From an uncultured Candidatus Saccharibacteria bacterium (GTDB taxonomy: Bacteria > Patescibacteriota > WWE3 > CAZQFB01), in assembly GCA_964592525.1 (NCBI GenBank), contig CAZQFB010000001.1:147454-211453 (forward strand): DNA of 64,000 nucleotides, in the 5' to 3' direction. Shown one piece after another: positions 33,695 through 63,353 of the stretch (position 1 is its first letter; every line of letters starts with the position of its first letter). The position numbers were made by a program, and so were the translations under genes. Under the pieces are notes generated by a model that was not told the origin of the DNA, did not search any database, and saw only the letters and a list, made by a program, of their open reading frames with translations.

Positions 33695-34849
33695 ATGGAA
33701 AAAGTAGTCATTGTTATTCCCACCTATAACGAGAAAGAGAATATTGAGCGAACCCTACGGGTTTCGTTGGAGGAGTTTTCCAAAATACAGGGAGCAAAGA
33801 TGCATATTTTGGTGGTGGATGGTAATTCGCCTGATGGTACGGCTGATCTAGTCAAGCCTTTTACTGAAAAGTATGAAAATGTTCACTTGTTGAGGAAAGA
33901 AAAGGGTGGTTTGGGAGGAGATTATATTGCGGGGATGAAATACGCCATGCACAAGCTGGGGGCTGATTTTGTGGGTGAAATGGACGCTGATTTGCAGCAT
34001 GATCCGGCTGATGTGGCGAGATTGGTAGAAGCCTTATTAAGTGGCGCTGATGTGGCGGTGGGGACGAGGTTTATAAAAGGGGGTTCTATTCCCTCCGGCT
34101 GGGGCATCCACCGCAAATTTTTAAGCTACTTTGGCAATCTTTATGCCCGTATGACCACCGGTTTATGGCAGTTACACGATATCACTTCGGGGTTTAGGAT
34201 CACTAGAGCGCGGGGGTTTCTGGATACAGTTGATTTGGACGCTCTCTTCTCCAAAAGATTCGCTTACAAGTTGGATATGATGTATCGCTTGCATCAGTTG
34301 GGGGCTAAGATTACTGAAGTACCGATCGCTTTTCACGAGAGGGATGTGGGTGAATCTAAGATCCAAGTTTTTGCATCCCTGAATAACAATGACTGGTTGG
34401 ATAGTTATATGGTGGTGACGATGGTGTTTTTGGAAAGATTGGGTCTTTTAAAGCATAAACGATTTATTAAGGTGGCTCTGATTGGGGTTTTTGGGGGAGG
34501 GGTTCAGTTTGTCACTTATACCTTGATCAGACTGTTATTAAAAGTGTCACCCCAGATAGCTACGGTGGTTTCCGCCGAGGTTGCCATCATCTCCAACTTT
34601 ATCTTTAACCATCGGTGGGCCTTTAAGGATAGAAAAGAGCACGGACATTGGTTGGCTAAATTACTTTCTTTTAATTTTTTATCAATTGGGTCTCCTATTA
34701 TTCAATTGGCGGTAGTGCACTTTTTTGTTAACTGGTTAGGTGAGGGGTTATTGCGGGAGTGGGCGTATCTAGCTACAGGTATTTGGTTGGGGCTTATCTG
34801 GAATTATCTTTCTTACTCAAGAGTAGTATGGAGAAAGTCTTCCCAGTAG
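33695..34849 (+). CDS. GT2 polyprenyl-phosphate sugar synthase (Dpm1/GtrB/CsbB-like) fused to GtrA-like membrane domain
   Basis: VVIVIPTYNEKENIERTL, VVDGNSPDGT, DADLQHDP (DxD); C-terminal 4-TM GtrA-like region. Confidence 0.8.
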   Translation: MEKVVIVIPTYNEKENIERTLRVSLEEFSKIQGAKMHILVVDGNSPDGTADLVKPFTEKYENVHLLRKEKGGLGGDYIAGMKYAMHKLGADFVGEMDADLQHDPADVARLVEALLSGADVAVGTRFIKGGSIPSGWGIHRKFLSYFGNLYARMTTGLWQLHDITSGFRITRARGFLDTVDLDALFSKRFAYKLDMMYRLHQLGAKITEVPIAFHERDVGESKIQVFASLNNNDWLDSYMVVTMVFLERLGLLKHKRFIKVALIGVFGGGVQFVTYTLIRLLLKVSPQIATVVSAEVAIISNFIFNHRWAFKDRKEHGHWLAKLLSFNFLSIGSPIIQLAVVHFFVNWLGEGLLREWAYLATGIWLGLIWNYLSYSRVVWRKSSQ

Positions 34850-34850
34850 T

Positions 34851-35600
34851 ATGTGGTTGTCGGTAGTCATTCCCACCTACAATGAGGAGAAAATAATTGC
34901 CGAGACTTTAAGAACGCTTGACGCTTTCCTCAAGAAATACAACAAGGAGTATGAGTTAATTGTCTGTGATGATGGCTCTAGTGACCACACGGTTTCCATT
35001 GCAGATGAGTTAAGTAAGGTTATTCCCCAAGCTAGGGTTATTAGAAATCAACACAAAGGCAAGGCGCATGCTGTTTTTCAGGGGGTTACCAGCTCAAGAG
35101 GCGCTTTAATCTTGTTAACTGATGCTGATCTTTCTACGCCGATAAAGGAGCTGGATACTCTTCTTCCTTACGTGGTGAGTGGCATGGATATTGTGATTGC
35201 TTCCAGGGAAGGTTTACAGGCTAAGAGGGTAAATGAGCCTTTTTACAGACACCTTATGGGGAGAGTGTTTAACTATCTTGTCCAAATACTTGCCTTGAGG
35301 GGTATTAATGATACCCAGTGCGGTTTTAAGTTACTTACCAGGGAAAGCGCTAAAAGTATCTTTGCCCAGATGAGGTTGTATGGCGCTAATGCTAAGGTTT
35401 TGAGTGCCCCGGCGGTGACGGCTTATGATGTGGAAATGCTTTTTTTGGCCAGAAAATTGGGATTTAAGATCGAGGAAGTGCCCGTGGAATGGTTGTATCG
35501 TGATGAGACCAGAGTCAATACGCTAAGAGATTCTTGGCGTAATCTTTTGGATGTGGTTAAAGTGCGCTGGTATGATCTGATGGGTTATTATTCTAAGTAG
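34851..35600 (+). CDS. GT2 family glycosyltransferase (dolichyl-phosphate hexose transferase-like)
   Basis: SVVIPTYNEEKIIAETL, CDDGSSDHT, DADLSTP. Confidence 0.8.
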   Translation: MWLSVVIPTYNEEKIIAETLRTLDAFLKKYNKEYELIVCDDGSSDHTVSIADELSKVIPQARVIRNQHKGKAHAVFQGVTSSRGALILLTDADLSTPIKELDTLLPYVVSGMDIVIASREGLQAKRVNEPFYRHLMGRVFNYLVQILALRGINDTQCGFKLLTRESAKSIFAQMRLYGANAKVLSAPAVTAYDVEMLFLARKLGFKIEEVPVEWLYRDETRVNTLRDSWRNLLDVVKVRWYDLMGYYSK

Positions 35601-35632
35601 GAAGTTGCTATTTATTTCCCTGGATAAATCTT

Positions 35633-36907
35633 ATGTCGTCTAAATTCAACCTGATTTCTAGTTTGAAGGGCAATACTCTAGTCAGGGGTAGTTTTTGGTT
35701 GTTTGTGTCCTCAACGGTAGTTAATCTGCTTAATTTTTTGTACACCATCTTTATGGGTCGATTATTAGGGCCGGTTGATTATGGGGTGCTAACGGCCTTG
35801 ATTTCCCTGTTGTATGTAGTGTCTGTTCCTTCTCAAACCCTGCAAACGGTAAGTGCTAAGTTTGTCTCTAAATTTTTTGCCCAAGATGAGAATCAAGCGA
35901 TCTGGTTGTTTTTCCTGAAGGTATCCAAGTACATTATCGCTGTTTCCATTTTAGGTGGCTTGTTGGTGTTACCTAATTTAAGCTGGCTCTCCAAACATTT
36001 AAACATACCTCGTGAGGATTATTTACTGGGTATTTTTTGCTTAACTGTGTTTGGGTTTTTAAACACCACTGGCTTGGGTTTACTGCAGGGGGTGCAGCGC
36101 TTTTTTGCGTTGGCGCTAAGCGGTTTTTTAGCTATGACCGTTAAACTAGTGGTTGGTGTTGGTTTGGTTTATTGGGGGTTTGGGGTGGGAGGAGCGTTGT
36201 GGGGGTTGGTTCTTAGTGGGTTGGTGCTATTTGTCTTTGTTCTTTTTTTTGCTGGAAAATATCGGGAAAAGGGTCGCCCAAGCCAAACTTTGGGGCTTAA
36301 AAAAGAGGTTTTTAATTTCACCCTGCCAACTTTAATCGCTTTTGTTGGTTTGGTGCTACTGGTTAACCAGGATGTGCTTTTGGTCAAGAAACTGTTTTCA
36401 GATTTAGACGCTGGTTATTATGCAGCGCTTTCCATGCTGGGCAAAGTGATTTTCTTTGCCTCTGGGTCAGTGGCCACGGTTTTTTTCCCCTTGGCTTCTG
36501 CTAGGTACGAGAAAGGGGAGCAATCCAGCAGACTGCTTCACTTGTCCTTGGGGCTGGTAGGGTCGGCGGGGTTTTTGGGGGTGCTGGGGTATTACTTGTT
36601 TCCTGATTTGGTGGTGAGTTTGTTTTATGGTGAAAAATATTTGGCTATCGCTCCTCTTTTGTGGTTGATTGGCTTGTTTAATCTTTTTTACAGTTTGCTC
36701 TATTTGCTGGTTCTGCACTTTTTGGCTAGGCAGAAAACTTATTATTCTTTGGTGCCTCTGCTAGGGGCTATGGGGCAATTCATCTTACTTTGGTTAGCCC
36801 ATGATAATTTAAGGCAGGTGTGTTTAATTTCTACTGTGGTGGTGGGCGTGTTGTCGGGGTATCTCTATTTGGTGTATAGTGTCAACGATGGCAAGAACTC
36901 GGCTTAA
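35633..36907 (+). CDS. MOP-superfamily polysaccharide flippase (Wzx/MurJ-like)
   Basis: 424 aa, ~12 TM helices, typical N-terminal region. Confidence 0.65.
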   Translation: MSSKFNLISSLKGNTLVRGSFWLFVSSTVVNLLNFLYTIFMGRLLGPVDYGVLTALISLLYVVSVPSQTLQTVSAKFVSKFFAQDENQAIWLFFLKVSKYIIAVSILGGLLVLPNLSWLSKHLNIPREDYLLGIFCLTVFGFLNTTGLGLLQGVQRFFALALSGFLAMTVKLVVGVGLVYWGFGVGGALWGLVLSGLVLFVFVLFFAGKYREKGRPSQTLGLKKEVFNFTLPTLIAFVGLVLLVNQDVLLVKKLFSDLDAGYYAALSMLGKVIFFASGSVATVFFPLASARYEKGEQSSRLLHLSLGLVGSAGFLGVLGYYLFPDLVVSLFYGEKYLAIAPLLWLIGLFNLFYSLLYLLVLHFLARQKTYYSLVPLLGAMGQFILLWLAHDNLRQVCLISTVVVGVLSGYLYLVYSVNDGKNSA

Positions 36908-37724
36908 AGTTAGTAAGCACCTCCCCCAATTATCCGTAGTGGTGCCTTCCTTTGGGGAGGAAAAAACCATTGAGCGAGATATTTTAAGGCTAGTTCAGGA
37001 GTTGGATGGTATTAGGTACTCTTACGAAATTATAGTGGTAATTGACGGGTTGCTTAATAAACAGGATCAATCGTTAGTTAAAGCGCAAAAGTTAGAGTCT
37101 AGCAAGGTTCATGTTTTTGGATACCCAGAAAACAAGGGTAAAGGCTATGCGGTGCGTTATGGGATGGCTAAGACTAAAGGAGCGGTGGTGGCGTTTATTG
37201 ATTCTGGGATGGAGATTAGTGCAAATAGCTTAAGTTTGGCGCTGGAGCATTTTTATTGGTACGAGGCGGATATTATTATTGGCAGTAAAAGACACCCCGC
37301 TTCACGGGTTTCTTATCCTCGTTCTCGCAGAATTCTTAGTGTGGGGTATCAAATTTTGGTGTGGTTCTTGTTTGGGCTTAAGGTAAGAGATACGCAAGTG
37401 GGGATGAAGATATTTAAAAGAGAGGTGTTGGAAAAAGTCCTCCCCCGGTTGGTGGTGAAAAGGTATGCTTTTGATATTGAGATGTTGGCGGTTTCTCACG
37501 CCTTGGGTTTTAAGAGGATCTTTGAAGCCCCAGTGGAGTTTAGTTATGACAGTAACTTTACAGTAAACTCTTCAAATATAATTACCATCCTAAGAATGCT
37601 CCAAGACACCATGGCTGTTTATTATCGCCTGGTTATTAGACGCTATTACTCAAGGAAAAATCGAAATAACTGGTGCTGTGAAGTTGATCTAGTAGTGATG
37701 AGAAATATTGCTAAAAGCGCTTAG
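36879..37724 (+). CDS. GT2 family glycosyltransferase
   Basis: LSVVVPSFGEEKTIERDI, VVIDGLLNKQD, KGKGYAVRYG, DSGMEIS. Confidence 0.75.
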   Translation: MSTMARTRLKVSKHLPQLSVVVPSFGEEKTIERDILRLVQELDGIRYSYEIIVVIDGLLNKQDQSLVKAQKLESSKVHVFGYPENKGKGYAVRYGMAKTKGAVVAFIDSGMEISANSLSLALEHFYWYEADIIIGSKRHPASRVSYPRSRRILSVGYQILVWFLFGLKVRDTQVGMKIFKREVLEKVLPRLVVKRYAFDIEMLAVSHALGFKRIFEAPVEFSYDSNFTVNSSNIITILRMLQDTMAVYYRLVIRRYYSRKNRNNWCCEVDLVVMRNIAKSA

Positions 37725-39348
37725 GTATTTGGTAAATTACGATGGAGTTGTTTTGAAATACCTTGCTTAAATAACTATTGTATAAAGTGGCGGTGGTCAG
37801 GTCTTTTTCCAGATAATGGGTTTGCGTAATAAGGTGGGTAGCTTCTAAGTTTAAAGCTTCCGCAATTCCTTCTGTGCTATTTAATCGTAGGGTAAAAGCT
37901 GTTTCATCAAATTTTGTGCCTTTTAAGTAAATGGGATTAACGTAAGGTATACCCTTCAAGGGTAACCAAAAGTTTAAGGCTATGTTGGTGTTGGGGTAAC
38001 TGACAATGATTGGTTTTTGGGGCAAGCTCTTTAGATAAAGGATATAGTCAGGTGGTTTGTTGCTGTCAATGATAGGAAGCTTAATGGCGAACTCACCAAA
38101 AGCTACAGTAGCCAGCAGAGCAAAAAGGGGAAACACTAATTTGGAAGGCATCCTTTTAAGTGTTGCTTCCAAATAAGACATTCCCCAACCAGCTGTGATT
38201 AATACAAGTAGATTAATCCAAACCGAGAATCTGACTAATACTCGAAAAGAAGGCATTAAATAATAAAAGAGATAAGAGGGTGAATAGAATTTATGACCAG
38301 CTATGGTAAAGAAGGGTGGTCCAGTGATGGAAAGTAAGAGAAAGATAGAGAGTATAAATGAAAGAACGCGCTGACCATTTAATGATTTCCAACGCCTCCT
38401 ATGAATAAGCAACGTAAACAGTAAAAAGAATAGAGTGGTATATCCAAGGTAAACGCCCCCAGCCTCTTGGGGGTCGTAGTTTTGTGCCAGAAAGTATTCA
38501 GTGTTTTTCAGTTGATTGTAGAGGTCTTGAGACAACTCTCCAAGAAATAAGCTGTCCGTTGGGGGAATGAAAAAGTACCAAGGTCTAAATGAGTACGAGA
38601 AGAAATCTTCCAAGGTTCTGTGAGGCACTACGCCTTCCAGATCAGCTTTTTCTAGATGCGCTTTTGAATATCTGTTGAACACATAGGAGCTATGGATGAA
38701 GGGAGTTAGGTTGGGTATGATTACTAGTGCAATAACGGGTATAGTTATCTTGAGCAAGCTAGCAATTGCTTTCGTTAATGTTTGTCGAAGGTAAGGTTGG
38801 TGGCGGACAGTGGCTAAAGTAATGATGGTTTCTGATATTGAAAGTAAAGATATTCCCACAAAACCTATATAGCCATAATAATTACTTAGATAAAATATTC
38901 CTGCTAGTAAAAATCCCAGCTTCCAAGTTTGTTTTGACAAATAGGACGATAGGATAAGTGGGAAAACAAAAGTGAAATAAAGCAGTTGTGAATTTGAGGC
39001 TACCCGATATAAAAAATAGGGAGAGAGGCTGTAAAGGGTGGAAAGAATAATTATGGTATACGTGGAGTATTTTAATTTGGTAAATAACTTGGAGCTGAAA
39101 TAGAATGTTAGAAGAACACTGACTAAAATGAGTAAATTATTAGCCAGGAAGGGATTAAAAATAGATTGAAACAACCGTATGATCAAATCGCCGATAAATT
39201 GAGGCGTGTATGAATAAGGTTCTACTGCGGAGGTGTGAGGATAACCTAGTAAATAAGTTTGTTTGGTTGCATTAAGCCAGCCTTTAAGTAGCTCTGGGGC
39301 TAAATCATTCATTTCACCAAATGTTTTTGTGGTAAGAAAATTAAACAC
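37711..39348 (-). CDS. polytopic membrane protein, putative GT-C-type glycosyltransferase/polymerase
   Basis: 545 aa, >10 TM helices, embedded in glycan locus. Confidence 0.45.
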   Translation of the reverse strand: MFNFLTTKTFGEMNDLAPELLKGWLNATKQTYLLGYPHTSAVEPYSYTPQFIGDLIIRLFQSIFNPFLANNLLILVSVLLTFYFSSKLFTKLKYSTYTIIILSTLYSLSPYFLYRVASNSQLLYFTFVFPLILSSYLSKQTWKLGFLLAGIFYLSNYYGYIGFVGISLLSISETIITLATVRHQPYLRQTLTKAIASLLKITIPVIALVIIPNLTPFIHSSYVFNRYSKAHLEKADLEGVVPHRTLEDFFSYSFRPWYFFIPPTDSLFLGELSQDLYNQLKNTEYFLAQNYDPQEAGGVYLGYTTLFFLLFTLLIHRRRWKSLNGQRVLSFILSIFLLLSITGPPFFTIAGHKFYSPSYLFYYLMPSFRVLVRFSVWINLLVLITAGWGMSYLEATLKRMPSKLVFPLFALLATVAFGEFAIKLPIIDSNKPPDYILYLKSLPQKPIIVSYPNTNIALNFWLPLKGIPYVNPIYLKGTKFDETAFTLRLNSTEGIAEALNLEATHLITQTHYLEKDLTTATLYNSYLSKVFQNNSIVIYQIPKRF

Positions 39349-39351
39349 TTA

Positions 39352-42300
39352 TTATTTTTTAGACGATAGCATGTATATTGTAATAAATATGAGTATGGCA
39401 GTATATGTAATTAGTGTTATAGGTAATAACTTTTCTGTAACATCTTGAGGAGCATAATAAATATCCATATCTAGGTTTCCTTTGTATAAACCTGGGTTCA
39501 CCCACCAACCATTTTCGAAGTTGTTAACTAAGTAATGTTGCACAGTTACCTCACTTGGAGGGGTTGTTCTCACTTTCCACCTAGGATCAAATTGTTGGTT
39601 AAGAATTAAGCCAAACTCACCAGCTACGTTTTGCAGTCTTATTTTGTATTCGTGTCGATTTGATTTTAGTACCGTCACCTCTGGAGGATTATTCCCTGAC
39701 AACTGTTCTTCGATTAGTGGAGCTATTTTTTGAGCTTCCCTGATGAAATTTATTTGTTTGAAAGCATGGTTTATATCGTCTGTTAGTAAATAGATGTTTA
39801 CCTTTTGAGGGTAGTAGGTTTTATCTATTTCTATATTGATGTTAGGTAAGGAACCTTCCTCAAAATCATCTGGTTTAAATTCTTCTAACCACTTTTCCTT
39901 AACTTCATAAAGCTTCCTGTTTTTCAACAAATCGTAACCTGAAACTTGCGTTTCTTCCCTAGTGATAAGAATGGCAGAAGGTGAGATAAGGGGGATGATT
40001 TGTAATCTCCAAGAGAACGAGTTGTCTGGTTCTAATTGATATTTATATACTGTAAATTCGGAGTATTCCTCATTGAGTAAATATTTCCGATGGTCTTTGT
40101 AGCTCTTTCTAAGGGGATTCTTCTCGTCCAGCAGTTTCATGCCAAGCTCCTGTTGGCTCAACCTAACAAAATCACGGCTTGAAATTGAGGTTGTTTCCGG
40201 GGGTGAAGAAAGTTGAACAGCCAATGCCTCCTCCCACAAAAATAGGTTGTAATTTTTGTCCTTTTTTTTAATAACGAGCATTTCTTGATATCTATTATTC
40301 TCTGCATCTTCCAGTTGTTGTAACCACTTGGTGTAATAGGAATATGTGTCTAGGTTTTGTAATTCGTGGGCTTTTCTTAGGTAGTTTCTACACTTTGTAA
40401 TCATGCCAAAAAGACTATCTGATGGTTTGGGATTCCATTCATAGGAGATTTCTTTTTGAAGTTGGGTATATAGACGGAGATGTTCTTCTTTAAGATAATC
40501 AGTTGCCCCATATTTTTCCATTTCAGACACACGTTTACTAGCGTTCCAGATTAGAAGATCAATCCTCTTGATGGGATCTTTCTCTTTATATAATTGATAC
40601 TTTTCCATAAGTACGGTTATTTTGTAAGCATTTGTGCCAGGTTGCCTGTTTACTTCAGGCCAACTCCAGCCACCATGCCACTTGTCAATGTTTGAGATTT
40701 CAATTTTTTCTAAATTGTGTTTAACCACCCTAAATTGATTAAAAGAGTTGATAGTGCTTGGATGAGTAAAGAGGGATATCTCCGGGTTGTGATTTTTAAG
40801 TGCAATTACTTCTGTTGCCGAAGCAGTGCCCTGCAAAGCCTTGTTTATGCCTGTAATTGGGGTATGGTCTTGTTCTACCTCAAAAAGGCTAATTACTCTA
40901 TTTTTATTGCTAAGCACCTGATCAGATATTTCTGCTATTTCCCCAGAGCCCCTTATCTTTTCCAGAAGAGCCCAATCTTCAGGTAACAGGGACTCGTGGT
41001 AAAACACCAAGTATTTAATATTAAGCATCTTAAGCGTCTGCTGTATCGCTTCTAAATCTTGCGTGTAGAGGCTTTCCATAAACACAGCTAAAAGTTCTTT
41101 ACTTGCTGAAGAATCTTTATCGCCAATAATAATTGGACCGGGTTTTTGGGAATAGATTGGAAATATGGCGGACGCTTCTTGAAAGGGACCTTTATAAATT
41201 TTCGTACTGAAAATGTTTACCCCTTGACCTTGTGGGAGATACAGTACCCGCCCCTCATTGTTCTGATGGGTAATAAAGGAATCAACTTTTTGGTATTGCT
41301 CATCAAACTGATATGTTCGTAAAGAGATATCTTCTACTATGGTCTGATCACCGACAAGCTTGAAGGTGATGAAAGGATATGTTGATAGAATAAGGAGGGC
41401 ACAAATAAACAACGTGACCAAATATTTCCCACGTTTCCAAAGATCATTTAATAGGATAATTGAGAGTGTTACCATTGAAAATGATATTAAAACTTCCATT
41501 CTGGCAACATCTCGAATGATATTTGCGAAGGGCAAAAATGTTAATCTTTGGGGTCCTAAGAGGTACAGTATGAAGGGTAATCCGTACAGGCAAATAAATA
41601 AATTTTTATCTATTCTTGTGTTTTTTACGTACTTAATTCCTGTGATAAATAGTAAAGTGAGCGTATATGAGAGAGGTTTGAGCATATTTGGGTAACTACT
41701 TTCGTATGAGTAGTTAAATAAGGAACCCCACCCTTTAGCAAGGTTAAGGATAGAAAGCTTCTGCCAGGTTCCAAGGCTGATACTAGATAGAACATTTTCC
41801 CCTCCATACAAAACTGGGTCTGGATAGAGAAAAAGATTGATGATCCAGTGTATGTTTGCTAGGAATAGGATAAAACCAACCACAAAACTAACTTTGAATA
41901 CCGGCAATATGTTCTTTTTGTCCTTAAAGATATAAAGCAGTCCTAGGCTTAAGGTCGCAAACGAGTACCAGATGATTGTTGTTGACTGGATCATTGCGAG
42001 TGACCACAACAATCCAGCAAGAATCGTGTGGAACAAATTATGCCTTTTAATTGTTTTATCCAGAAGGACAATATAGAAGGGAAATAGACCCATACTTATT
42101 AGAATATTGATCCATCCCATTACAGCAAAGTTAAAATAGAATGGTGAGGTTATATACAAAAATCCTCCAAAAAATGAAAACCTTTTTCTAAGGCCAAGGT
42201 ATCTTAGCAGTGTGTACATACCAATGCCTCCTAAGGTAAAAGAAAAAAGAAGCAGGGATTTTGACAGAGCTTCCCCAGTCAAATTTAAAGAGGAAAATAT

Positions 42301-42597
42301 TTTATAAATTGGAACAAAGGGAACATCTGTCAGATAAGAGCGATACCCACCTAAGAATGTTGATATCGTTAACCAGGAAGAGGTGGCTGCTTCGGCAGCT
42401 CTGTCCATCTGTTCCGGGGTATAAGGCAAAGACCAATCACCACCCAGAAACATCCCCTTACTAGCTAGTGGTTTCACTAGTAACAAAACAGAGATTATAA
42501 AAAAGAGAAGAGTAACAGTATAGAAATCTATTTTAAAACTATTTAGAAAATGCTTCCAAAGCTTGAAGTTCAATTTCAAAAACTTTATTCCAGTCAT
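39352..42597 (-). CDS. YfhO-family (GT-C) membrane glycosyltransferase-like protein with large extracytoplasmic C-terminal domain
   Basis: 1081 aa; N-terminal multi-TM block; C-terminus DPRWKVRTTPPSEVTVQHYLVNNFENGWWVNPG resembles YfhO C-terminal motif, with terminal TM. Confidence 0.55.
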   Translation of the reverse strand: MTGIKFLKLNFKLWKHFLNSFKIDFYTVTLLFFIISVLLLVKPLASKGMFLGGDWSLPYTPEQMDRAAEAATSSWLTISTFLGGYRSYLTDVPFVPIYKIFSSLNLTGEALSKSLLLFSFTLGGIGMYTLLRYLGLRKRFSFFGGFLYITSPFYFNFAVMGWINILISMGLFPFYIVLLDKTIKRHNLFHTILAGLLWSLAMIQSTTIIWYSFATLSLGLLYIFKDKKNILPVFKVSFVVGFILFLANIHWIINLFLYPDPVLYGGENVLSSISLGTWQKLSILNLAKGWGSLFNYSYESSYPNMLKPLSYTLTLLFITGIKYVKNTRIDKNLFICLYGLPFILYLLGPQRLTFLPFANIIRDVARMEVLISFSMVTLSIILLNDLWKRGKYLVTLFICALLILSTYPFITFKLVGDQTIVEDISLRTYQFDEQYQKVDSFITHQNNEGRVLYLPQGQGVNIFSTKIYKGPFQEASAIFPIYSQKPGPIIIGDKDSSASKELLAVFMESLYTQDLEAIQQTLKMLNIKYLVFYHESLLPEDWALLEKIRGSGEIAEISDQVLSNKNRVISLFEVEQDHTPITGINKALQGTASATEVIALKNHNPEISLFTHPSTINSFNQFRVVKHNLEKIEISNIDKWHGGWSWPEVNRQPGTNAYKITVLMEKYQLYKEKDPIKRIDLLIWNASKRVSEMEKYGATDYLKEEHLRLYTQLQKEISYEWNPKPSDSLFGMITKCRNYLRKAHELQNLDTYSYYTKWLQQLEDAENNRYQEMLVIKKKDKNYNLFLWEEALAVQLSSPPETTSISSRDFVRLSQQELGMKLLDEKNPLRKSYKDHRKYLLNEEYSEFTVYKYQLEPDNSFSWRLQIIPLISPSAILITREETQVSGYDLLKNRKLYEVKEKWLEEFKPDDFEEGSLPNINIEIDKTYYPQKVNIYLLTDDINHAFKQINFIREAQKIAPLIEEQLSGNNPPEVTVLKSNRHEYKIRLQNVAGEFGLILNQQFDPRWKVRTTPPSEVTVQHYLVNNFENGWWVNPGLYKGNLDMDIYYAPQDVTEKLLPITLITYTAILIFITIYMLSSKK

Positions 42598-46305: not shown

Positions 46306-46889
46306 GCTGCTTTAAGTTGTAGGCTGTTAGGTAAAAACCTTAGCCAAGCCAGGAAGGGGTTAAGACCAATCTTGTGGGTAAGGTTAGTGTAAAAATCCAG
46401 TTCAAGATGTAACGGCTGAAAGTTAGTATACAACATCAACTCAATTAAGTTAGAAGGGGAAAAACTATATAAATGATTTCCATTTCTGGTGAAATATGGG
46501 TACTTAAGGTGGATAAGACTTGCTTCGTTTGGCAGGGAGACAATAAGCAGCCCGTCCTTTTCTAGTTGTTCCCAGCTATACCTTAACATTGAAATGGGGT
46601 TTTCTAGATGTTCAAGAATATGAGAAAGGAAAACAGCCTCAAACTTTTCAGGTAACGGTTGGGGGTTATTAAAATTCATCTTTTTAACCCGCAAACCCTT
46701 TCCCCTTGCCTTCTCTAGGTTTTTATCTGCTAAATCTAATCCAAAGGATCCTTGACCAAAGTGTTTAAGATACCCACCTTCCCCGCAACCAACATCAAGC
46801 ACCTTTTTACCGCGAACGAAGGGAAAAATGGCTTTCATGAAAGTGGGGGATACTTCAGTAGTGAACTGATATTCTTTATCGTATTTCAT
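46272..46889 (-). CDS. class I SAM-dependent methyltransferase
   Basis: VLDVGCGEGGYL motif I. Confidence 0.75.
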   Translation of the reverse strand: MKYDKEYQFTTEVSPTFMKAIFPFVRGKKVLDVGCGEGGYLKHFGQGSFGLDLADKNLEKARGKGLRVKKMNFNNPQPLPEKFEAVFLSHILEHLENPISMLRYSWEQLEKDGLLIVSLPNEASLIHLKYPYFTRNGNHLYSFSPSNLIELMLYTNFQPLHLELDFYTNLTHKIGLNPFLAWLRFLPNSLQLKAAWAYWGVARKK

Positions 46890-48061
46890 TTAGTCTTCTC
46901 GTAGTAATCCAATATAATCTGGGCATTACTTTCTCCATAGTGCTTGAGAGCATACTCCCTTGCCTTGATTGCTTTTTGTTTTAATTCCTCGTTTTTATTG
47001 AGAATTTCTCTAAGGGTGTTGCTAAGCTCTGTTGCTGTTGGTGCTGGAGATAAATAATAGGTAAAGGAATCATCTAGAAACTTTGGAGGTGATCCACGAC
47101 GAGTTACTAAAAGAGGTGTGCCACAGGCGGCGGCTTCAATTAAAGTAGCTGAAAATCCTTCCTCATACAAATAAGGAGATACCACCAGCTCGCAAAGGCT
47201 GTAAAGACAGATCAATTTTTCTCTTTCCTGTTGGTCTTGTTGCCTAAGGGTACCGTAAAAATGAAGATTGTGATGTTTTTTGGCTACGGCGTTAATAGAA
47301 TCTTCTAAGGGACCCTGCCCCACAATATGAAAACCAATGTGAGGTAGTTGCTTGACTGTCTCTAAAAATAATAAAACACCTTTTTTTTCAATCAATCTTC
47401 CCACACCAAAAAGGACATTAAGTGGTTCTGTCACTTTGAGAGCCTGCTGACATTCAGATTTATCTTTGGGTTTAAAAATATTGGTTTCCACCCAGTTGGG
47501 ATGTATACCTACCTTTGAAGGTTTCAAGCCGATTTTAAGTAGCTCTGCTCTAGCTATTTCTGAAACAGCTAGCACCCACATATCCTCTAATATATTTTTA
47601 ACAATAAGCGACAACAGTTTTCTGTGACTGAAGTTATACACCGCATGGGTACTAACAACTATATGAATGGGGTGTATCTTTTGGAGAACTTTGGCAATGG
47701 CAGCTGCCACAAGACCATGAGCATGAAGGCAGTGAATATCTTTATGGTATCTAACATAGTAACTTAAGCTTTTATAAAAAAGACCGGGGAAAAGATACAA
47801 AAACTGCAGGGGGAAGTAATTTTCTAGCTTGTTAAATAATCCCCAACCAAACCACTGTTGTCTGTAAATTTCGAATTTTTGTCCTTGCTCATGCTTTGCG
47901 CCTCTTGTTTTTACCGTGAGCGGTTGGTATGTAATGACAGTAGCCTCATAGTTATTACTAGTGATAAATGAGAGCAGCTTGTCAATATGACTTTCCACAC
48001 CACCCAAATTGGGTCTGACAAAAGGGCAGATGATGAGTATCTTTTTGTAGTTAGTGGGCAT
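46886..48061 (-). CDS. GT4 family glycosyltransferase
   Basis: SPYLYEEGFSATLIEAAACGTPLLVT. Confidence 0.75.
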   Translation of the reverse strand: MPTNYKKILIICPFVRPNLGGVESHIDKLLSFITSNNYEATVITYQPLTVKTRGAKHEQGQKFEIYRQQWFGWGLFNKLENYFPLQFLYLFPGLFYKSLSYYVRYHKDIHCLHAHGLVAAAIAKVLQKIHPIHIVVSTHAVYNFSHRKLLSLIVKNILEDMWVLAVSEIARAELLKIGLKPSKVGIHPNWVETNIFKPKDKSECQQALKVTEPLNVLFGVGRLIEKKGVLLFLETVKQLPHIGFHIVGQGPLEDSINAVAKKHHNLHFYGTLRQQDQQEREKLICLYSLCELVVSPYLYEEGFSATLIEAAACGTPLLVTRRGSPPKFLDDSFTYYLSPAPTATELSNTLREILNKNEELKQKAIKAREYALKHYGESNAQIILDYYEKTK

Positions 48062-49609: not shown

Positions 49610-49688
49610 GTCATATTGTGCGTCTTAATGTGTTGTATCATACCCTGATAATTAGTTGTTTTCTAGTCTTTGTATTTTTAATGATTAG

Positions 49689-50465
49689 TTGTATAGTGAC
49701 TTTGATACCAAGATGCTAAATGGAAAATATAACCGTGCGTGTGTAATTATTCCCACGTATAACGAAGTAGATAATATTGAACAACTTATTCATGATATTG
49801 CTGCTGTTGCTGTGGGTATTAATATAATTGTGGTTGATGACAATTCTCCCGATGGCACCAGTGCGGTTGTTTCATCACTTCAAAAGTGTTATCCCCATTT
49901 ATATTTAATCAGCCGGAGTGGAAAAGCTGGACGTGGCGGGGCGGTAATAGAAGGCATCAGAAGGGCAATGAATTTAAAGGCGGACTATATATTAGAGATG
50001 GATGCTGACTTTTCGCATGATCCAAAAGATATCATTAGATTTTTGGATATTATCCAAGATGGCTATGATGTGGTTGTAGGATCTAAACACCTTAGAAATA
50101 GTAAGATTGTTGGTTGGGACTGGAAAAGAAAATATTTGAGTCTGTGCGGCAACTTATTTGCCAGACTGATGCTTGGGGTTCCTCTTTGTGATTACACTAA
50201 TGGTTTTCGCTGTTATACCCGTAAGTCTTTAGAAGCAATTAATTTTGAGCAGGTTCATGCTACTGGTTATGTTGTTCTTTCGGAAATGATTTATCAATTA
50301 CATCATCTGGGTTATAGAATAAAAGAAGTCCCTATTGTCTTTGTTAATCGAAGACGCGGTTTGTCCAATCTGACTTTGGCTGAAGTGACTGGCGCTTTTA
50401 AAACCATTGTGGCTATAAAAAAGAAAGAGATTCTTACTCGATTTCATGAGATTTTTAAACATTAA
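49689..50465 (+). CDS. GT2 polyprenyl-phosphate mannosyltransferase-like (Dpm1-like)
   Basis: ACVIIPTYNEVDNIEQLI, VVDDNSPDGTS, DADFSHDP. Confidence 0.8.
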   Translation: MYSDFDTKMLNGKYNRACVIIPTYNEVDNIEQLIHDIAAVAVGINIIVVDDNSPDGTSAVVSSLQKCYPHLYLISRSGKAGRGGAVIEGIRRAMNLKADYILEMDADFSHDPKDIIRFLDIIQDGYDVVVGSKHLRNSKIVGWDWKRKYLSLCGNLFARLMLGVPLCDYTNGFRCYTRKSLEAINFEQVHATGYVVLSEMIYQLHHLGYRIKEVPIVFVNRRRGLSNLTLAEVTGAFKTIVAIKKKEILTRFHEIFKH

Positions 50466-53400
50466 GATACTTTCTAAATACCTTGCCCCAGCTAAGGCTT
50501 TGGCAACTAAGTTTGTTCATTCAAGGTGGTTTATTTTTCTCACACTTTTTTTTCTAATCCTCATTTTTTATTGGTCTTTCACAGCGGGGGTAATGTATCC
50601 AGCCCAAGATGGTGCTTTGCCAATTAGTTATTATGCCCATTTATACACCGGTTATTTAAATTATGGGGAATATTTCCTAACCAACACCTTTTCGTATACA
50701 GAAGATTTAATCACTAGCTATGTTTTTATGGGTGCTTCTCCCTTTGACCCAGTTTTGAGAGTGTGGTTCTTTATCAGTCAGTTACTTAATCTGTCCGTAT
50801 TAACCTCCTTTTGGTGGTATCTCATTATTTACATTACGTTCGGTACTATTGCCGTATATATTCTAGGGGAGACGCTTCTTTTTAAAAATAAAAGTTCTTC
50901 TTTTTATTTAGCTGTTGTTTTCTCTATGTCAGGATATTTTGTCTCCAGCACTTCTATTCCCAGCTTTATTATTCCTTTTGCTTGGCTACCAGTAATTCTT
51001 TTATTATCCTTGTCTTGTTTTAAGTACCAGCGCTTGGGAGATTATTATTTGTTGTCTTTGGGGCTATCCATACTAATTACCACCTATATTACTTTGGGAA
51101 TTGGTATTAGCCTCTATTGTTTTCTTTTTATTCTTCCCTTTTTGTTAAATTACTGGCTTAACTACAAAAATAGAAGAGCGCTACTTTTTAAAAGGCTTGT
51201 GTTTTTTGGAGGGCTTTCGCTGTTTTTTAACTCGGTGATATTCCTGGTTTATATTAGATATCTAAATGGAAGTATTCGTTGGTTGCAGGATTTAAAATGT
51301 TTCTATGTGGGTATTCCCCCTCAAATATTAAGTTCCAATCGGTTTATTGATTGGCAATGGCTGTTTAATATTTTTATGCCCAGTGATTTGTTAGCTACTT
51401 GGAATGGGTATGGAAATGGTAGTCTGTGGATCAATAGTTTTTACTATCTAGGAATAGCCTCTTTTATTTTGGCCTGTTTGGGAATTGTGGTGTTAGGTAA
51501 CAGAAAAAGGTATCGTTTGTTTGCTACAGGTTTATTGATAGCAACAATGTTCGCCTTTTTCTACGCCCAAGGACATCCCTTACCGAGAATGATTCCTTTT
51601 TTTAATACCCTCACAAAGTATCCCCATTTTTCTAGACCACTTATTATTTTTAGTGCTCTATTGCTATCCGCTTTTGGGTTTAATGAGCTTTTTGTAGCCA
51701 AGAATAAAGTGATCAAAGACTTGAAAGTATTATCGCTAAAATATTTTCCAGCGTTGCTTATTTTGGCCGCACTGTTTCTACTCCTGGTTCATTTATCCGT
51801 TGGTGCTAAATCCAAACCAGACGAAATTGTGTACTCTCTTTCTTATATCTTTATTTTGGGTATCTTATACGTGGTAGCTATGGTATCTAAGCGTAAGAAG
51901 TTATTTTTATCTTTACTGCTTTTTGATTTATTCTTTTTTCTCTCATCCAGTATTCCTCTGGTTGATTACCCACATAAGAGAACACTTGCCAGTATTACGG
52001 CCGTGTTTCTAAATAGTGATCGGTCGTTTAAGATTCCTCAGCTTCAAGAATATTCTGTAACAAAACCATTTCCTGGTATGCATTTTGGAGCTAGTGCTGT
52101 CTATAGTAGGCAAAGTCATCTTCCCTCACCCGAAACTGGTTTTATGTTGCTTAGGCGAACGGCTTTAAGTAACAAAGAGATTAATGATACTTTTATAAGT
52201 GGTAAACAGCGTTTCAACGCCTTGTCTATGCTGGGGGTTTCTAAGACAAGGTATTTTGTTGCACCTGCTGCTCTTATGGTAGATCAATACGAGGATCTTT
52301 ATCCAAAACTTAGTCTTCTTTATGAAGAATTAGACCGCGAAAAGCCTTGGCAAGGGGCGGAACCAGTTGTTGTTGTGGGTAATGACCATCCTTTGCTGGC
52401 AAAGGTGTCGGGTGAGTATGGGCTAAGCGATACAAAGGTAACAATTCATACTGATTATGAGGAATATTTATCTTCATTTTCTAGAGATAACCAGCGCACT
52501 CAAGTTACTTTAGAAAAAGAATACTTGGTGGATGTGGGTCGGGGTGTTTATAAGTTTACAGGGGAACTTCCTGTGGCGCAGGAAATTGTGACTGAAGGTA
52601 TTTCCGCTGAGCGCTTATGCCTTTTAGTTGAGGATGCTGGTGGTAATTACTATTATCCCTTAAGTGGGGATATCTTTAATTTTGATGAGTCGCCTCCAGA
52701 GGGGGAGCCCGCCAATAAAAAGTATATGGTACCTAATAATTATTTTTACGCTTCTTACTTAGAGACTGACGGAGAAGCATCTTTTTTTATCAGAAGACCA
52801 ACCAACCAACCTGGTCTGGATTTAGAAGACTTAATCTTGTTTATCAAAGATCCCTGTTATAGTCCATTTACTGGTAGTGACGACTTAAGAGAGGAAAAAG
52901 TGGTTATTCCTTCAAGTGATTTTGTTTTTGAAAAAGATTTTAAGAACACTGTACTCGCCTATTATACTGGGGTATTGACGAATACAGAGTTACCTTCTTA
53001 TTTTGGCAAAAGTTTTAATAGGGTAACAGTAACTGATTTAGAGGGAAGAAAAATTGATTGGTTTGAAGAGCATAGTAATCAGGAAGCCAGTTTTGAACTA
53101 GAAGACCAGGTTTTGAGAATCCTCTTAGATTATTACGCAAATCCGGTTATTGCGAGTCCTATTCAGGTAAATTTTAGTGTTATTGACAAAAAACCCTATC
53201 CACCGGAAATAGAAATTGTTAATGAAACGCCGGATCAAGTATTACTCAAAGTACGTTCTGAAGAACCATCAATAGTTGTTGCCCGTCGGGTGTTTGAACC
53301 TGATTGGAAAGTTTTTGTTGATGGTGAAAAAGAGAAGGTCTTTTCTGTAAATGGGTTGTATCTTGGTGTAGAAATGCCTGCGGGTGATCATGAAATCAAG

Positions 53401-53520
53401 TTTGAGTATAAGCCTTTTTGGTTGGGGTTTATGAAAGAGTTAGTGCCAGTGTACGCTATTGTGATTCCCGTGTTAATTCTTATACTTCGCGGTAGAAGCC
53501 ACCGCGAGCAGGATTCTTGA
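50446..53520 (+). CDS. YfhO-family (GT-C) membrane glycosyltransferase-like protein
   Basis: 1024 aa; multi-TM N-terminal half; C-terminus VARRVFEPDWKVFVDGEKEKVFSVNGLYLGVEMPAGDHEIKFEYKP plus final TM matches YfhO C-terminal signature. Confidence 0.6.
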   Translation: MRFLNIKILSKYLAPAKALATKFVHSRWFIFLTLFFLILIFYWSFTAGVMYPAQDGALPISYYAHLYTGYLNYGEYFLTNTFSYTEDLITSYVFMGASPFDPVLRVWFFISQLLNLSVLTSFWWYLIIYITFGTIAVYILGETLLFKNKSSSFYLAVVFSMSGYFVSSTSIPSFIIPFAWLPVILLLSLSCFKYQRLGDYYLLSLGLSILITTYITLGIGISLYCFLFILPFLLNYWLNYKNRRALLFKRLVFFGGLSLFFNSVIFLVYIRYLNGSIRWLQDLKCFYVGIPPQILSSNRFIDWQWLFNIFMPSDLLATWNGYGNGSLWINSFYYLGIASFILACLGIVVLGNRKRYRLFATGLLIATMFAFFYAQGHPLPRMIPFFNTLTKYPHFSRPLIIFSALLLSAFGFNELFVAKNKVIKDLKVLSLKYFPALLILAALFLLLVHLSVGAKSKPDEIVYSLSYIFILGILYVVAMVSKRKKLFLSLLLFDLFFFLSSSIPLVDYPHKRTLASITAVFLNSDRSFKIPQLQEYSVTKPFPGMHFGASAVYSRQSHLPSPETGFMLLRRTALSNKEINDTFISGKQRFNALSMLGVSKTRYFVAPAALMVDQYEDLYPKLSLLYEELDREKPWQGAEPVVVVGNDHPLLAKVSGEYGLSDTKVTIHTDYEEYLSSFSRDNQRTQVTLEKEYLVDVGRGVYKFTGELPVAQEIVTEGISAERLCLLVEDAGGNYYYPLSGDIFNFDESPPEGEPANKKYMVPNNYFYASYLETDGEASFFIRRPTNQPGLDLEDLILFIKDPCYSPFTGSDDLREEKVVIPSSDFVFEKDFKNTVLAYYTGVLTNTELPSYFGKSFNRVTVTDLEGRKIDWFEEHSNQEASFELEDQVLRILLDYYANPVIASPIQVNFSVIDKKPYPPEIEIVNETPDQVLLKVRSEEPSIVVARRVFEPDWKVFVDGEKEKVFSVNGLYLGVEMPAGDHEIKFEYKPFWLGFMKELVPVYAIVIPVLILILRGRSHREQDS

Positions 53521-53576
53521 TTCAACTCTCCTCATCTGTAATAGGATGGATACAAAGTAATCACCACTAATAATAT

Positions 53577-55742
53577 TTATGCCTTTGGTAGAATTTGGTT
53601 GCTCCTCTCAAGTTTAAGAACGCTCATTATTATAAGGGTAAACAAACTAAGGGCTAATAAAAAGCAGAGCCACACAATGTCTGATTTATGATTAAATTCA
53701 ATGAATATTCCCGAGAGAAAATAAAGCTCCAAGGACATGAAAAAAAAGTAACTAAATAATAGAAATAACTTAACTTTTGTTGACTTTGCGGTCATCTCTC
53801 TAACGATTATTCCTAGTATTAAAGGGATGATAAGGGGATAAATAGCAGAAAAGATGCCATAAGAAGTACCTGAATATACAAGTAAAAACAAGGCAAGGGG
53901 TGTGAGTATAAACCATAGTGCTTGTCTGTATTTAACATTGCTAATTACGTTTTTGGTTTTAAGAATGAAGAATATGGCTAATACGGGAGTAATTGCAAAG
54001 ACTAGTGATCTACTTAGTAAATTTCTAAAGTAAGCAAGGGATGTAAAATTTTCATGATAAGTGAGAGTGTAATCGGGAAGGAAAAGGTTTATCAAATTGA
54101 ATATTTTATCTGCAATAAATTGTTTTGGAATATTACTAAGACTTTGGGCATAGATATTGCTTGATAAGGATCCGCTAACTAAGTAATTGTTAGAGAAGGT
54201 AGTCCAAAGAATAAAGGTAATAATAGAAGGTGAGAAACTTATTATATACCCATAAATTATATTATTGATTCCCTTTAATCTAGATAAGTAGTAAATGCCC
54301 ACAGAAGCAATAATTATCATTGCCAAGGGGTGAATGAATAGAGACATAGCAAGGAGTAACCCGATAATGTAAAACGGAATATGTGGTCTCTTTAGAATAG
54401 CTAACGCTAGGATTGCTGGATAAAAAGCTATATATTTTAAGTGGACTTCAGTTGAAAAAGCCATAAATAGAAAAGGTACATTCATAAGCATTAATAGGCT
54501 CACTTTTTTGGCGGTGTTTGTATTAAGGTACCTTTTAATCAAAATGTAAACGGAACAAAAATATAATGATACCAATACATTAGTGAAACGTTGGTAAATA
54601 AAATGACTTTCACCAAACATTTTAAGTATAGGTGCGGTAATCAGGGCTAACATTGGTGTGCGGTCAAAAATTGAAGCTTTTTCGTGACCCAAAAGGTAAT
54701 ATTCAGTTTCTTCAGAATCTAATTCAACCCGATTTAAAATGATTCTCGCAATGCCCCAACTGCGTGTATTATCAATATGGTAACCGTAGTAACCACCACC
54801 CCTACAATCCGGTGGATATTTTTGCTCAACTAAATACTGTTCAATATATGGTAAATTGACAAGAAAATCTCGTTGAGCTTGTACCACTGTTGATACCAAG
54901 GTGGCTATAATAGTGATGAATAAAATAAACTTTAACTCCCCCAGATTTTTATAAAGCCTATCTTTTAAGAAAGCATATCCTGCTAATATGAACAGTAAGA
55001 AAGGGATATAGAGCGCCAACTCAATACCTAGAAAATAATAGACCATCGCTGAAACGGCAAGGATAGATAAGAATATTACCGGACCGAAAGCCAACTTATT
55101 CTCTGGACTGATGTTTCTTCTTCTATATTGTTGCATGAGTTGTGCTAGACCGTAACCCGAGACATAGACTAAAATGTAGAATATTGCGGAGTAAATGATG
55201 TAAAAAGGGAAAGACTCATTATGTCTGCTCACATAGTCTTTCATCGCAAAGAGGAAGTTTACTTGTTTTCTCTCTAGTAAGTTAAAGTTTTTGATCGCTA
55301 CGGCATTATCAAAAGCAGCTTTATGTAAGATAATTTCTATTTTTTTTGTTTCAAGTTCTTCCTGTAAGGTTTTACGGAATGATGATTTTCGATTACCTCT
55401 AACTACTTCTATGTAAGATGACCCAAACTCGGTTTCTGCTATAACATCAAAATCTTCAGCTAAATATGAAGAGGTATTATGAAAGTTGCCTGGGAAGTAA
55501 AACTCTACCCCAGAAATATTAAGTGGTTTGCTCAAAAGTATTTCTATTTTTTGGGGGGTGCTTCTCGTTATGTTTGTTACGACTAAAGCATTTGGTTCTG
55601 TAAGATTGCTAAATATTTCTTTAGGTTCGGAAAAGAGTTTAGTTGCTTCACTAGATAGCTGGTAGATGGTTGTTTGACCAAATAATAATGTCAAAAAAAT
55701 AAGTGTAGCTAAGATAAGGGCGAAGTAATATTTTCTAATCAT
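53577..55742 (-). CDS. large polytopic membrane protein (extracytoplasmic N-domain + >12 TM), putative glycan polymerase/GT-C
   Basis: 721 aa; hydropathy only. Confidence 0.4.
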   Translation of the reverse strand: MIRKYYFALILATLIFLTLLFGQTTIYQLSSEATKLFSEPKEIFSNLTEPNALVVTNITRSTPQKIEILLSKPLNISGVEFYFPGNFHNTSSYLAEDFDVIAETEFGSSYIEVVRGNRKSSFRKTLQEELETKKIEIILHKAAFDNAVAIKNFNLLERKQVNFLFAMKDYVSRHNESFPFYIIYSAIFYILVYVSGYGLAQLMQQYRRRNISPENKLAFGPVIFLSILAVSAMVYYFLGIELALYIPFLLFILAGYAFLKDRLYKNLGELKFILFITIIATLVSTVVQAQRDFLVNLPYIEQYLVEQKYPPDCRGGGYYGYHIDNTRSWGIARIILNRVELDSEETEYYLLGHEKASIFDRTPMLALITAPILKMFGESHFIYQRFTNVLVSLYFCSVYILIKRYLNTNTAKKVSLLMLMNVPFLFMAFSTEVHLKYIAFYPAILALAILKRPHIPFYIIGLLLAMSLFIHPLAMIIIASVGIYYLSRLKGINNIIYGYIISFSPSIITFILWTTFSNNYLVSGSLSSNIYAQSLSNIPKQFIADKIFNLINLFLPDYTLTYHENFTSLAYFRNLLSRSLVFAITPVLAIFFILKTKNVISNVKYRQALWFILTPLALFLLVYSGTSYGIFSAIYPLIIPLILGIIVREMTAKSTKVKLFLLFSYFFFMSLELYFLSGIFIEFNHKSDIVWLCFLLALSLFTLIIMSVLKLERSNQILPKA

Positions 55743-62531: not shown

Positions 62532-62533
62532 TA

Positions 62534-63352: not shown

Positions 63353-63353
63353 C

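Follow-up and report, generated by a model that had tools for sequence, protein, structure and literature searches.

What kind of glycan machinery is encoded between positions 33,695 and 55,742 of the window analysed here, a stretch of 64,000 nucleotides from an uncultured Candidatus Saccharibacteria bacterium (contig CAZQFB010000001.1), is the question raised by a locus in which glycosyltransferases of family 2 (GT2) stand beside a flippase candidate and very large membrane proteins. The original prediction, made from the letters alone, saw several copies of a three-component module for glycosylation outside the membrane, each with a GtrB/CsbB-like GT2, a GtrA-like flippase and a YfhO-type glycosyltransferase of the GT-C fold. 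All of its open reading frames (ORFs) were found where it had placed them, on the same strands, and the inventory comes to four GT2s resembling dolichol-phosphate-mannose synthase (DPMS) and GtrB and four GT-Cs, with a single GtrA domain and a single Wzx. The interpretation is supported in that each part it named is there and falls in the family or superfamily claimed. The reading favoured here, at a probability of roughly 0.7, is a multi-component transmembrane (extracytoplasmic) glycosylation system that lies within a surface-glycan cluster.

In systems of this kind a GT-A enzyme makes a C55-phosphate-linked sugar inside the cell, a flippase moves it and a GT-C transfers the sugar outside (PMC8035078), and in L. 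lactis and B. subtilis several GT-A/GT-C pairs have one common flippase (PMC8035078). At the present locus, the four DPMS/GtrB/ArnC-like GT2s would use nucleotide sugars to load polyprenyl phosphate with single sugars at the cytoplasmic face, and the lipid-linked sugars would be flipped by the GtrA/DPMS-type domain fused to one GT2, by the Wzx-like protein, or by both. Four GT-C-fold enzymes, two of them full-length and YfhO-like, one a truncated YfhO-like partner and one a CBM32-PMT_2-like protein, are predicted to consume these donors outside the membrane. Meanwhile GT4 and GT2 enzymes, five methyltransferases and genes for heptose and amino-deoxy-hexose would build the methylated backbone or primer glycan to be elaborated. 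Judged from sequence, a chain of lipid-phosphate-sugar synthase, flippase and extracytoplasmic GT-C has better support than any other reading.

The donor side begins with the GT2s, for all four of which the best match in the PDB was the Pyrococcus furiosus DPMS (5mlz), followed by ArnC and GtrB. The first (33695..34849, plus strand, 384 aa) joins a catalytic domain (Pfam PF00535, E 1.2e-26) to a four-helix GtrA/DPMS-type transmembrane (TM) domain (PF04138, GtrA_DPMS_TM, E 1e-18), and it matches 5mlz end to end, TM domain included (E 7.5e-36 across residues 3-349). The other three, also on the plus strand, are GT2_b (34851..35600, 249 aa), a soluble DPMS/ArnC/PgfS-like protein (Pfam GT2 E 9.5e-28; 5mlz E 4.3e-21), GT2_c (36879..37724, 281 aa), which is weakly DPMS-like (Pfam GT2 E 1.4e-19; 5mlz E 6.5e-8, then the Synechocystis GtrB sll0501), and GT2_d (49689..50465, 258 aa), soluble and DPMS/AglJ-like (Pfam GT2 E 1.8e-28; 5mlz E 2.1e-27). 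The catalytic domains of the enzymes at 33695 and 49689 are 38% identical. The top NCBIfam families were PgfS, ArnC, AglJ, PpgS and the haloarchaeal dolichyl-phosphate-hexose transferase, all far under their equivalog cutoffs; PgfS came first for two GT2s, GT2_b matched PgfS and ArnC best, and GT2_d matched AglJ first and the dolichyl-phosphate-hexose transferase second. A role as polyprenyl-phosphate-sugar synthase is strongly indicated for the enzymes at 33695 and 49689, moderately for that at 34851 and weakly for that at 36879, so that the expectation of at least three Dpm1/GtrB-like GT2s, one of them fused to a GtrA-like domain, was borne out.

A separate Wzx-like flippase had also been foreseen, and the MOP-family protein of 424 aa at 35633..36907 (plus strand) matches Polysacc_synt_3 at E 8e-18 and Polysacc_synt at E 4.7e-9, with a weak NCBIfam match to the Wzx of O-glycosylation. 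The idea of several three-component sets needs refinement. The GtrA domain occurs only once and is fused to a GT2, no free-standing GtrA is present, and with a single Wzx beside it no complete triplets can be drawn up. The GT2_d gene overlaps that of a 1024-aa GT-C by 20 nt (49689/50446), and the other three GT2 genes lie in an operon that converges on, and abuts, the genes for a 1081-aa GT-C and its 545-aa neighbour, an arrangement that is kept in a related contig from ENA (L001).

The acceptor side was expected to contain two YfhO-family proteins, and the 1081-aa (39352..42597, minus strand) and 1024-aa (50446..53520, plus strand) proteins do appear to belong near that family. A reference set (A5) was made up of three proteins with Pfam YfhO matches, among them P0005 (87.6 bits, profile positions 28-596). 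Against this set, hhalign gave a probability of 99.1% for the 1024 family (A3; E 8e-19, 320 columns of the TM domain) and 97.7% for the 1081 family (A1; E 1.7e-12, 398 columns of the TM domain). Hydrophobic composition as the source of these signals was rejected: a Wzx profile, used as a negative control for hydrophobicity, reached no more than 0.5% against any of the families, and the hhalign signals therefore represent real homology at the level of GT-Cs. Cross-signals of the families to that of the 721-aa protein described below were weaker (78-91%), and profiles of the 1081 family and of a mixed set (A2) had no real match among PDB sequences. Among the GT-C families, the two proteins appear from their sequences to stand closest to YfhO.

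In YfhO of B. subtilis, about 12 TM helices at the N-terminus are followed by a large region outside the cell and by one last TM helix at the C-terminus (PMC5836110), and by predicted secondary structure and hydropathy the same architecture is found in both proteins. The 1081-aa protein starts with a TM domain, continues with an extracytoplasmic region of ~630 aa whose last part is a beta-sandwich, and closes with a TM helix; in the 1024-aa protein, the TM domain is followed by an extracytoplasmic region of ~480 aa, and the YfhO C-terminal motif comes before the closing TM helix. That motif (Y/F-x-P-x-W-K-V-x-V-D-G ... G-x-H ... F-x-Y-x-P, ahead of the final TM helix), which had been claimed for both, is clear in the 1024-aa protein, whereas the 1081 family has a looser version (F-D-P-R-W-K ... 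H..vN..NGW ... PQ) with W1007, H1021, N1029 and P1050 invariant. At the other end of the proteins, an aspartate directly after TM1, in loop 1, is invariant in the 1081 family (D54), and an aspartate after TM1 is likewise invariant across the 1024 family and the YfhO proteins (D55, aligned to D64 of P0005).

The fold of the 1081-aa protein points the same way. Its AlphaFold model has a mean pLDDT of 74, with 85-95 in the TM domain, and the only Foldseek matches at E<=1e-3 were GT-C enzymes (AftD 2e-10, STT3 2.6e-6, AglB, PglB and ArnT), with AftA (1.1e-3) and Pmt1 (0.03) weaker, while the C-terminal beta-sandwich separately matched sugar-binding jelly-roll domains. The original prediction had also implied paralogous sets, but BLASTP finds no similarity among the four large membrane proteins, which fall into at least three very divergent families, and recent paralogy was rejected.

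The two further large membrane proteins of the locus are both real polytopic proteins, as had been noted, and both are GT-C-like too, by hhalign in one case and by Pfam matches of the family and Foldseek in the other. The first, of 545 aa (37711..39348, minus strand), is a truncated YfhO-like GT-C by hhalign. Its family (A4) reached 90.4% against the YfhO reference set (E 1.4e-6, 298 columns), 97.8% against the mixed set and 93.8% against the 1081 family. The large outside domain and TM1 of the YfhO architecture are absent. There are six relatives besides the protein's own NCBI record, and the position of the gene, immediately downstream of one of the 1081 family, is shared by the window, L001 and another related contig, L019. 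The 545-aa protein can be read as a truncated partner of the larger one, perhaps without catalytic activity. In the window the two genes are in the same frame, with a stop codon and one codon between them (39348-39354). Read-through of that stop codon to give a fusion was considered and rejected, since in L001 the homologous genes are in different frames and share 1 nt, and in L019 24 nt lie between them.

The second, of 721 aa (53577..55742, minus strand), has a signal-anchor, an extracytoplasmic domain of the CBM32 or F5_F8 type C kind (residues ~24-161) and a PMT_2-like GT-C membrane domain. An exhaustive HMMER search gave 49 representatives of its family, in which 11 of 32 members match PMT_2 (PF13231, best 4.8e-13), 3 of 32 match F5_F8_type_C and D324, taken as the acidic residue of the first extracytoplasmic loop, is invariant. 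In Foldseek, the AlphaFold model (pLDDT 88) found several CBM32 structures at probability 1.0, and its multi-helix domain gave weak matches to AglB (8e-4) and ALG12 (TMt 0.48), weaker than those of the 1081-aa protein.

A number of observations weigh against the favoured reading. In the HMM check proposed with the original prediction, neither of the two ~1,000-aa proteins passed Pfam YfhO (PF09586, gathering threshold 28.5 bits): the 1024-aa protein scored 22.8 bits over its C-terminal 42 residues only, and the 1081-aa protein had no Pfam or NCBIfam match at all. The 545-aa protein (PF09586 included) and the 721-aa protein itself had no direct match in either collection. Assignment of the 545 family to YfhO is only moderate, as it also reached 82.6% against the PMT_2-like 721 family, and it is without the loop-1 aspartate as well as TM1. 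GT2_b, GT2_c and GT2_d have no TM segment by hydropathy, and GT2_c is only weakly DPMS-like, so that some of these enzymes may glycosylate lipid-linked glycans rather than polyprenyl phosphate. The only GtrA domain is part of an enzyme, the GtrA-type domain of the P. furiosus DPMS is the membrane anchor of that enzyme, and Wzx normally flips oligosaccharides linked to undecaprenyl diphosphate (Und-PP). Lastly, PF00953, PF02397, Wzy_C, Wzz and LCP had no match among the scanned ORFs of the window, although such genes could lie elsewhere in the genome, and no acceptor-synthesis genes were identified in the window, where teichoic-acid genes were not searched for.

P0002, which is 34% identical to the 1024-aa protein and essentially its one relative, passes PF09586 at 34.1 bits. 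None of the 1081 family members tested matches this profile, and of the 16 relatives of the 1081-aa protein none has Pfam domains and one is named Patescibacteria. A metagenome scan with the 1024-aa family gave one weak C-terminal match only, and relatives of the GT2_d-1024 pair were located only at contig ends. On the present evidence, nothing but profile-profile and fold comparison ties the 1081-aa and 1024-aa proteins to YfhO. The claim that both belong to the YfhO family thus stands on the hhalign probabilities, the architecture and, for the 1081-aa protein, Foldseek, and falls at the Pfam threshold.

The arrangement of the genes offers a further line of evidence, as its synteny recurs in other genomes and therefore is not due to chance. 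L001 has the order SIS-GT4 followed by three methyltransferases, a GT4 and genes for proteins of 1070 and 545 aa, convergent with GT2-Wzx-x-GT2-GT2/GtrA, and in L019 the series of GT4, three methyltransferases, GT4 and proteins of 1102 and 524 aa is repeated. The GT2_c homolog is kept beside Wzx in L001 and L002, and the adjacency of a GT4 gene with the YfhO-like gene is found also in L001, L004, L010 and L019. In L018, an acetyltransferase, a GT4, a methyltransferase and a 737-aa homolog follow the order of the window, which preserves the sub-cassette of GT4, methyltransferase and 721-aa protein. Eleven loci with 1081-family genes were found in GTDB, mostly labelled Parcubacteria, Saccharibacteria, Berkelbacteria or Patescibacteria, and in these the GT-C gene usually lies just downstream of GT4, GT2 or methyltransferase genes. 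Two side observations concern the density of such genes in the related contigs. L020 has a GT-C-dense region (2257-21626) with a member of the 545 family, three PMT_2 proteins, two unannotated proteins of ~720 aa and a GT2-GtrA, and L019 encodes a 1009-aa fusion of Wzy_C with PMT/PMT_2 at 20387-23309. GT-C-dense glycan islands seem to be recurrent in these lineages.

The locus is one part of a larger glycan cluster that spans at least 30 kb and reaches at least 63.9 kb of the window. From 33695 to 63962 the genes overlap or are separated by gaps of a few bases, and they fall into four transcription blocks of tightly packed ORFs: 33695-37724 (plus), 49609-37711 (minus), 49689-53520 (plus) and a last block (minus) that runs to 53577 from 63962 or beyond. 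Short intergenic regions occur at two places only, 49609-49689 and 53520-53577. A scan for promoters and terminators found fewer sites than in shuffled sequences and was uninformative on operons.

By Pfam and NCBIfam, the cluster also holds three GT4s, five S-adenosylmethionine (SAM)-dependent methyltransferases, and heptose and amino-deoxy-sugar genes, all of them on the minus strand. GT4_a (42539..43708, Glycos_transf_1 E 1.5e-15) is directly upstream of the 1081-aa YfhO-like gene and is preceded by four successive methyltransferases of 250, 302, 329 and 205 aa (43705..46889; Methyltransf_11/23/25/31), of which three are syntenic in L001 and L019. Then come GT4_b (46886..48061, Glycos_transf_1 E 6.6e-22 and Glyco_transf_4), a GmhA-like sedoheptulose-7-phosphate isomerase (48051-48623; NCBIfam gmhA E 3e-29, below the equivalog cutoff, and Pfam SIS_2) and an HddA-like heptose-7-phosphate kinase (48620-49609; NCBIfam HddA E 3e-49, also below the cutoff, and Pfam GHMP kinase). 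On the far side of the 721-aa gene, a fifth methyltransferase (55739-56680, Pfam) and a third GT4 (56677-57837, Pfam) are followed by genes for the modification of nucleoside diphosphate (NDP)-sugars and for cytoplasmic GT2s (57841..63962; Pfam, NCBIfam). These encode a WbbJ-like acetyltransferase, an Fcl-like reductase/epimerase, a 4,6-dehydratase, a LegC/PseC-like aminotransferase, an epimerase, an EpsE/TuaG-like GT2 and a 202-aa ORF. The EpsE/TuaG-like protein, at 62534, is the fifth GT2 and by this NCBIfam likeness is therefore an ordinary cytoplasmic chain-building enzyme, while the 202-aa ORF is related to the non-catalytic part of a GT2 and has homologs in L005 and L019, that in L005 (337 aa) being a full-length GT2 by NCBIfam. 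With the GT-C genes in operons with genes for GT4s, methyltransferases and NDP-sugar enzymes, this is a whole glycan-assembly cluster and more than a decoration system.

The G+C content is 0.34-0.39 over 38-64 kb, against 0.42-0.51 in the upstream housekeeping region with MutS, MutL, SodA and HtrA. Low G+C is typical of variable or horizontally exchanged surface-polysaccharide loci.

What receives the sugars is a separate matter. Two of the GT-Cs carry beta-sandwich domains of the carbohydrate-binding type, and because of this a glycan is favoured as the acceptor over naked protein; it could be a polysaccharide of the wall or surface, or sit on a protein that is glycosylated already. The live alternative, possible though clearly less probable than the favoured reading, keeps the same machinery and directs it to proteins, so that the GT-Cs would O-glycosylate Ser/Thr-rich secreted or membrane-anchored proteins and later GT-Cs would extend the O-glycan. 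There is precedent for this in the streptococcal YfhO-family proteins PgtC2 and PgfM1, which with GtrB and PgfS glycosylate Ser/Thr-rich disordered regions (PMC12041528). It also agrees with PgfS being the leading NCBIfam family for two of the GT2s and with the relationship of PMT_2 to protein mannosyltransferases, and the window does encode a secreted protein with Ser/Thr/Pro repeats (8948-10225) and a protease with a Ser/Thr-rich linker. However, the candidate acceptor is 24 kb distant and is not kept beside the cluster in relatives, the CBM32 and beta-sandwich domains on the GT-Cs point to the binding of sugars, and the many cytoplasmic GT4, methyltransferase and NDP-sugar genes suggest a larger polymer.

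The repeat protein (minus strand, 425 aa) is of interest in its own right, with an N-terminal hydrophobic anchor, ~170 aa of tandem, mucin-like Ser/Thr/Pro repeats that contain 63% Ser plus Thr in the densest 30 aa, and no Pfam match; it is a plausible acceptor for O-glycosylation. The protease (16135-17256, minus strand) is trypsin-like and membrane-anchored, with a short Ser/Thr/Pro-rich linker (TTTQSTTPPPTTS) following its TM helix.

Readings that change the machinery itself are weaker rivals. A conventional Wzx/Wzy heteropolysaccharide cluster, in which GT4 and GT2 enzymes would build an Und-PP-linked repeat unit for Wzx to flip and at least one large membrane protein would be the polymerase or ligase instead of a transferase that depends on lipid-phosphate monosaccharides, could account for the Wzx, the three GT4s, the EpsE/TuaG-like GT2 and the NDP-sugar genes. 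It would also fill the place of a Wzy, otherwise not recognisable in the window, and it gains something from a weak EpsG match in one member of the 721 family and from the Wzy_C-PMT fusion in L019. It is nevertheless unlikely, as an initiating phosphoglycosyltransferase, a chain-length regulator and an LCP ligase were not found in the window, a plain Wzy pathway would leave four DPMS-like GT2s without a function, and the large proteins resemble GT-Cs that use lipid-phosphate sugars rather than Wzy or O-antigen ligase. Quite improbable is a lipoglycan like the actinobacterial lipomannan and lipoarabinomannan (LM/LAM), primed by GT4s on a glycolipid, flipped, and elongated or branched outside by GT-Cs with polyprenyl-phosphate sugars from Ppm1-like GT2s, for although the 1081-aa model matches AftD, a LAM and arabinogalactan arabinofuranosyltransferase, best in fold, AftA matches too, PimB' is among the PDB matches of GT4_b and the enzyme classes fit the logic of PimA/PimB', Ppm1 and PimE/MptA/MptB, the Foldseek matches reflect a common GT-C fold and size rather than specificity, the GT4 comparisons with the PDB gave matches that were weak, generic or none, and no lipid-anchor synthesis genes were seen in the window.

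A more adventurous idea, which is a long shot, keeps the lipid monophosphate and enlarges what it carries. As haloarchaea do in their Agl pathway, the cell would build short methylated oligosaccharides on polyprenyl monophosphate; the Wzx-like protein would flip them and the YfhO-like GT-Cs would transfer them en bloc, the 1081-aa protein working as a heteromer with the Asp-less 545-aa protein. The whole would be a bacterial oligosaccharyltransferase system that is not of the STT3 type and whose donors would be oligosaccharides linked to Und-P. This was put forward because the cassettes of GT4, methyltransferase and GT-C are conserved, four GT2s of the polyprenyl-monophosphate kind are present and an Und-PP initiator was not found in the window.

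Comparison with known systems helps to place the transmembrane glycosylation system that is favoured here. CsbB-GtcA-YfhO systems glycosylate lipoteichoic acid (LTA) or wall teichoic acid (WTA) in B. subtilis, S. aureus and L. monocytogenes (PMC5836110, PMC8035078). The locus resembles them in that a GT-A synthase gene directly adjoins a YfhO-type GT-C gene, in the presence of a GtrA-family TM module, in the YfhO layout of TM bundle, large outside domain and C-terminal TM helix, and in having several GT-A/GT-C pairs in one organism. It differs in that its GT-Cs are below the Pfam YfhO threshold, its GtrA is fused to a GT2 instead of free-standing, its GT2s do not have the pair of TM helices with which CsbB and GtrB end, and its four GT-Cs are clustered with cytoplasmic GT4, methyltransferase and NDP-sugar genes, in a host that is probably a Patescibacterium. 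By analogy, the LTA/WTA systems would indicate how the system works, not what is modified.

Similar mixtures of likeness and difference are seen with the other systems. With the streptococcal Pgf and GtrB/PgtC2 systems (PMC12041528), the locus shares PgfS-like GT2s, at least two YfhO-domain GT-Cs per locus and a Ser/Thr-rich secreted protein in the window, but it has no adhesin or acceptor genes inside the cluster, a much larger gene content and GT-Cs with CBM-like domains. Like the archaeal Agl pathway (AglJ, AglD, AglP, AglR, AglS, AglB), to which GT2_d leads through its top NCBIfam match, it combines lipid-phosphate GT2s, extra cytoplasmic glycosyltransferases, SAM methyltransferase, a Wzx-like flippase and GT-Cs, yet the host is a bacterium, no oligosaccharyltransferase of the STT3/AglB type with WWDXG was recognised and NCBIfam scores fall well short of the equivalog thresholds. 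The mycobacterial AftD/Emb/Mpt enzymes with Ppm1 are alike in the best fold match of the 1081-aa protein, in large GT-Cs with extracytoplasmic domains of the carbohydrate-binding type and in polyprenyl-phosphate-sugar donors, predicted here, but identity is only 8-9% and an arabinan or mannan pathway context is missing. The mechanism is of a known kind, and what sets the locus apart are GT-Cs too divergent for Pfam and NCBIfam, a conserved pair of full-length and truncated YfhO-like proteins, a CBM32-fused PMT_2-like enzyme, conserved cassettes of GT4, methyltransferase and GT-C, and a synthase-fused GtrA with Wzx as the only free flippase candidate.

Patescibacteria, also known as CPR bacteria, live attached to other microbes, and to our knowledge almost nothing is known of their surface chemistry; a literature search found nothing linking them to systems of the YfhO/GtrA type. 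A glycan cluster with four extracytoplasmic GT-Cs that takes up 30 kb or more of a small genome suggests that the surface glycan is central to this way of life. The analysis also defines three GT-C families that are invisible to Pfam and NCBIfam, those of the 1081-aa protein, of its truncated 545-aa partner and of the CBM32-PMT_2 protein, and their conserved gene partners give them testable roles. If the coupling of GT4, methyltransferase and GT-C were to mean oligosaccharide donors linked to lipid monophosphate, archaeal-type glycosylation logic would be extended to bacteria.

Some neighbouring elements deserve mention. Next to the GT2-GtrA end of the cluster stand genes for a CAP-domain and a DUF5667 protein, in the window (31800-33639) as well as in L001 (18687-19681); the DUF5667 domain is frequent among CPR bacteria. 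On the upstream side, the cluster is directly preceded by a complete diversity-generating retroelement (28776-31749), which consists of a target ORF (28776-29678) with its variable repeat (VR) at 29548-29674, a template repeat (TR) of 127 nt at 30140-30266 that is 86% identical to the VR, a bAvd gene (30388-30756, minus strand; PF22296 E 2e-18) and a reverse transcriptase (30760-31749; RVT_1 E 1.4e-21). Every mismatch between the two repeats is an A in the TR that has become G, C or T in the VR. The retroelement, DUF5667 and the source names of the homologs point to a probable origin of the window from Patescibacteria. Farther upstream, ARAGORN placed a tRNA-His(GTG) and a tRNA-Glu(CTC) in 18357-19461, both positions being tRNA by Rfam as well, and the 303-aa ORF at 18371-19282, which overlaps the tRNA-His and has no Pfam match, is probably spurious.

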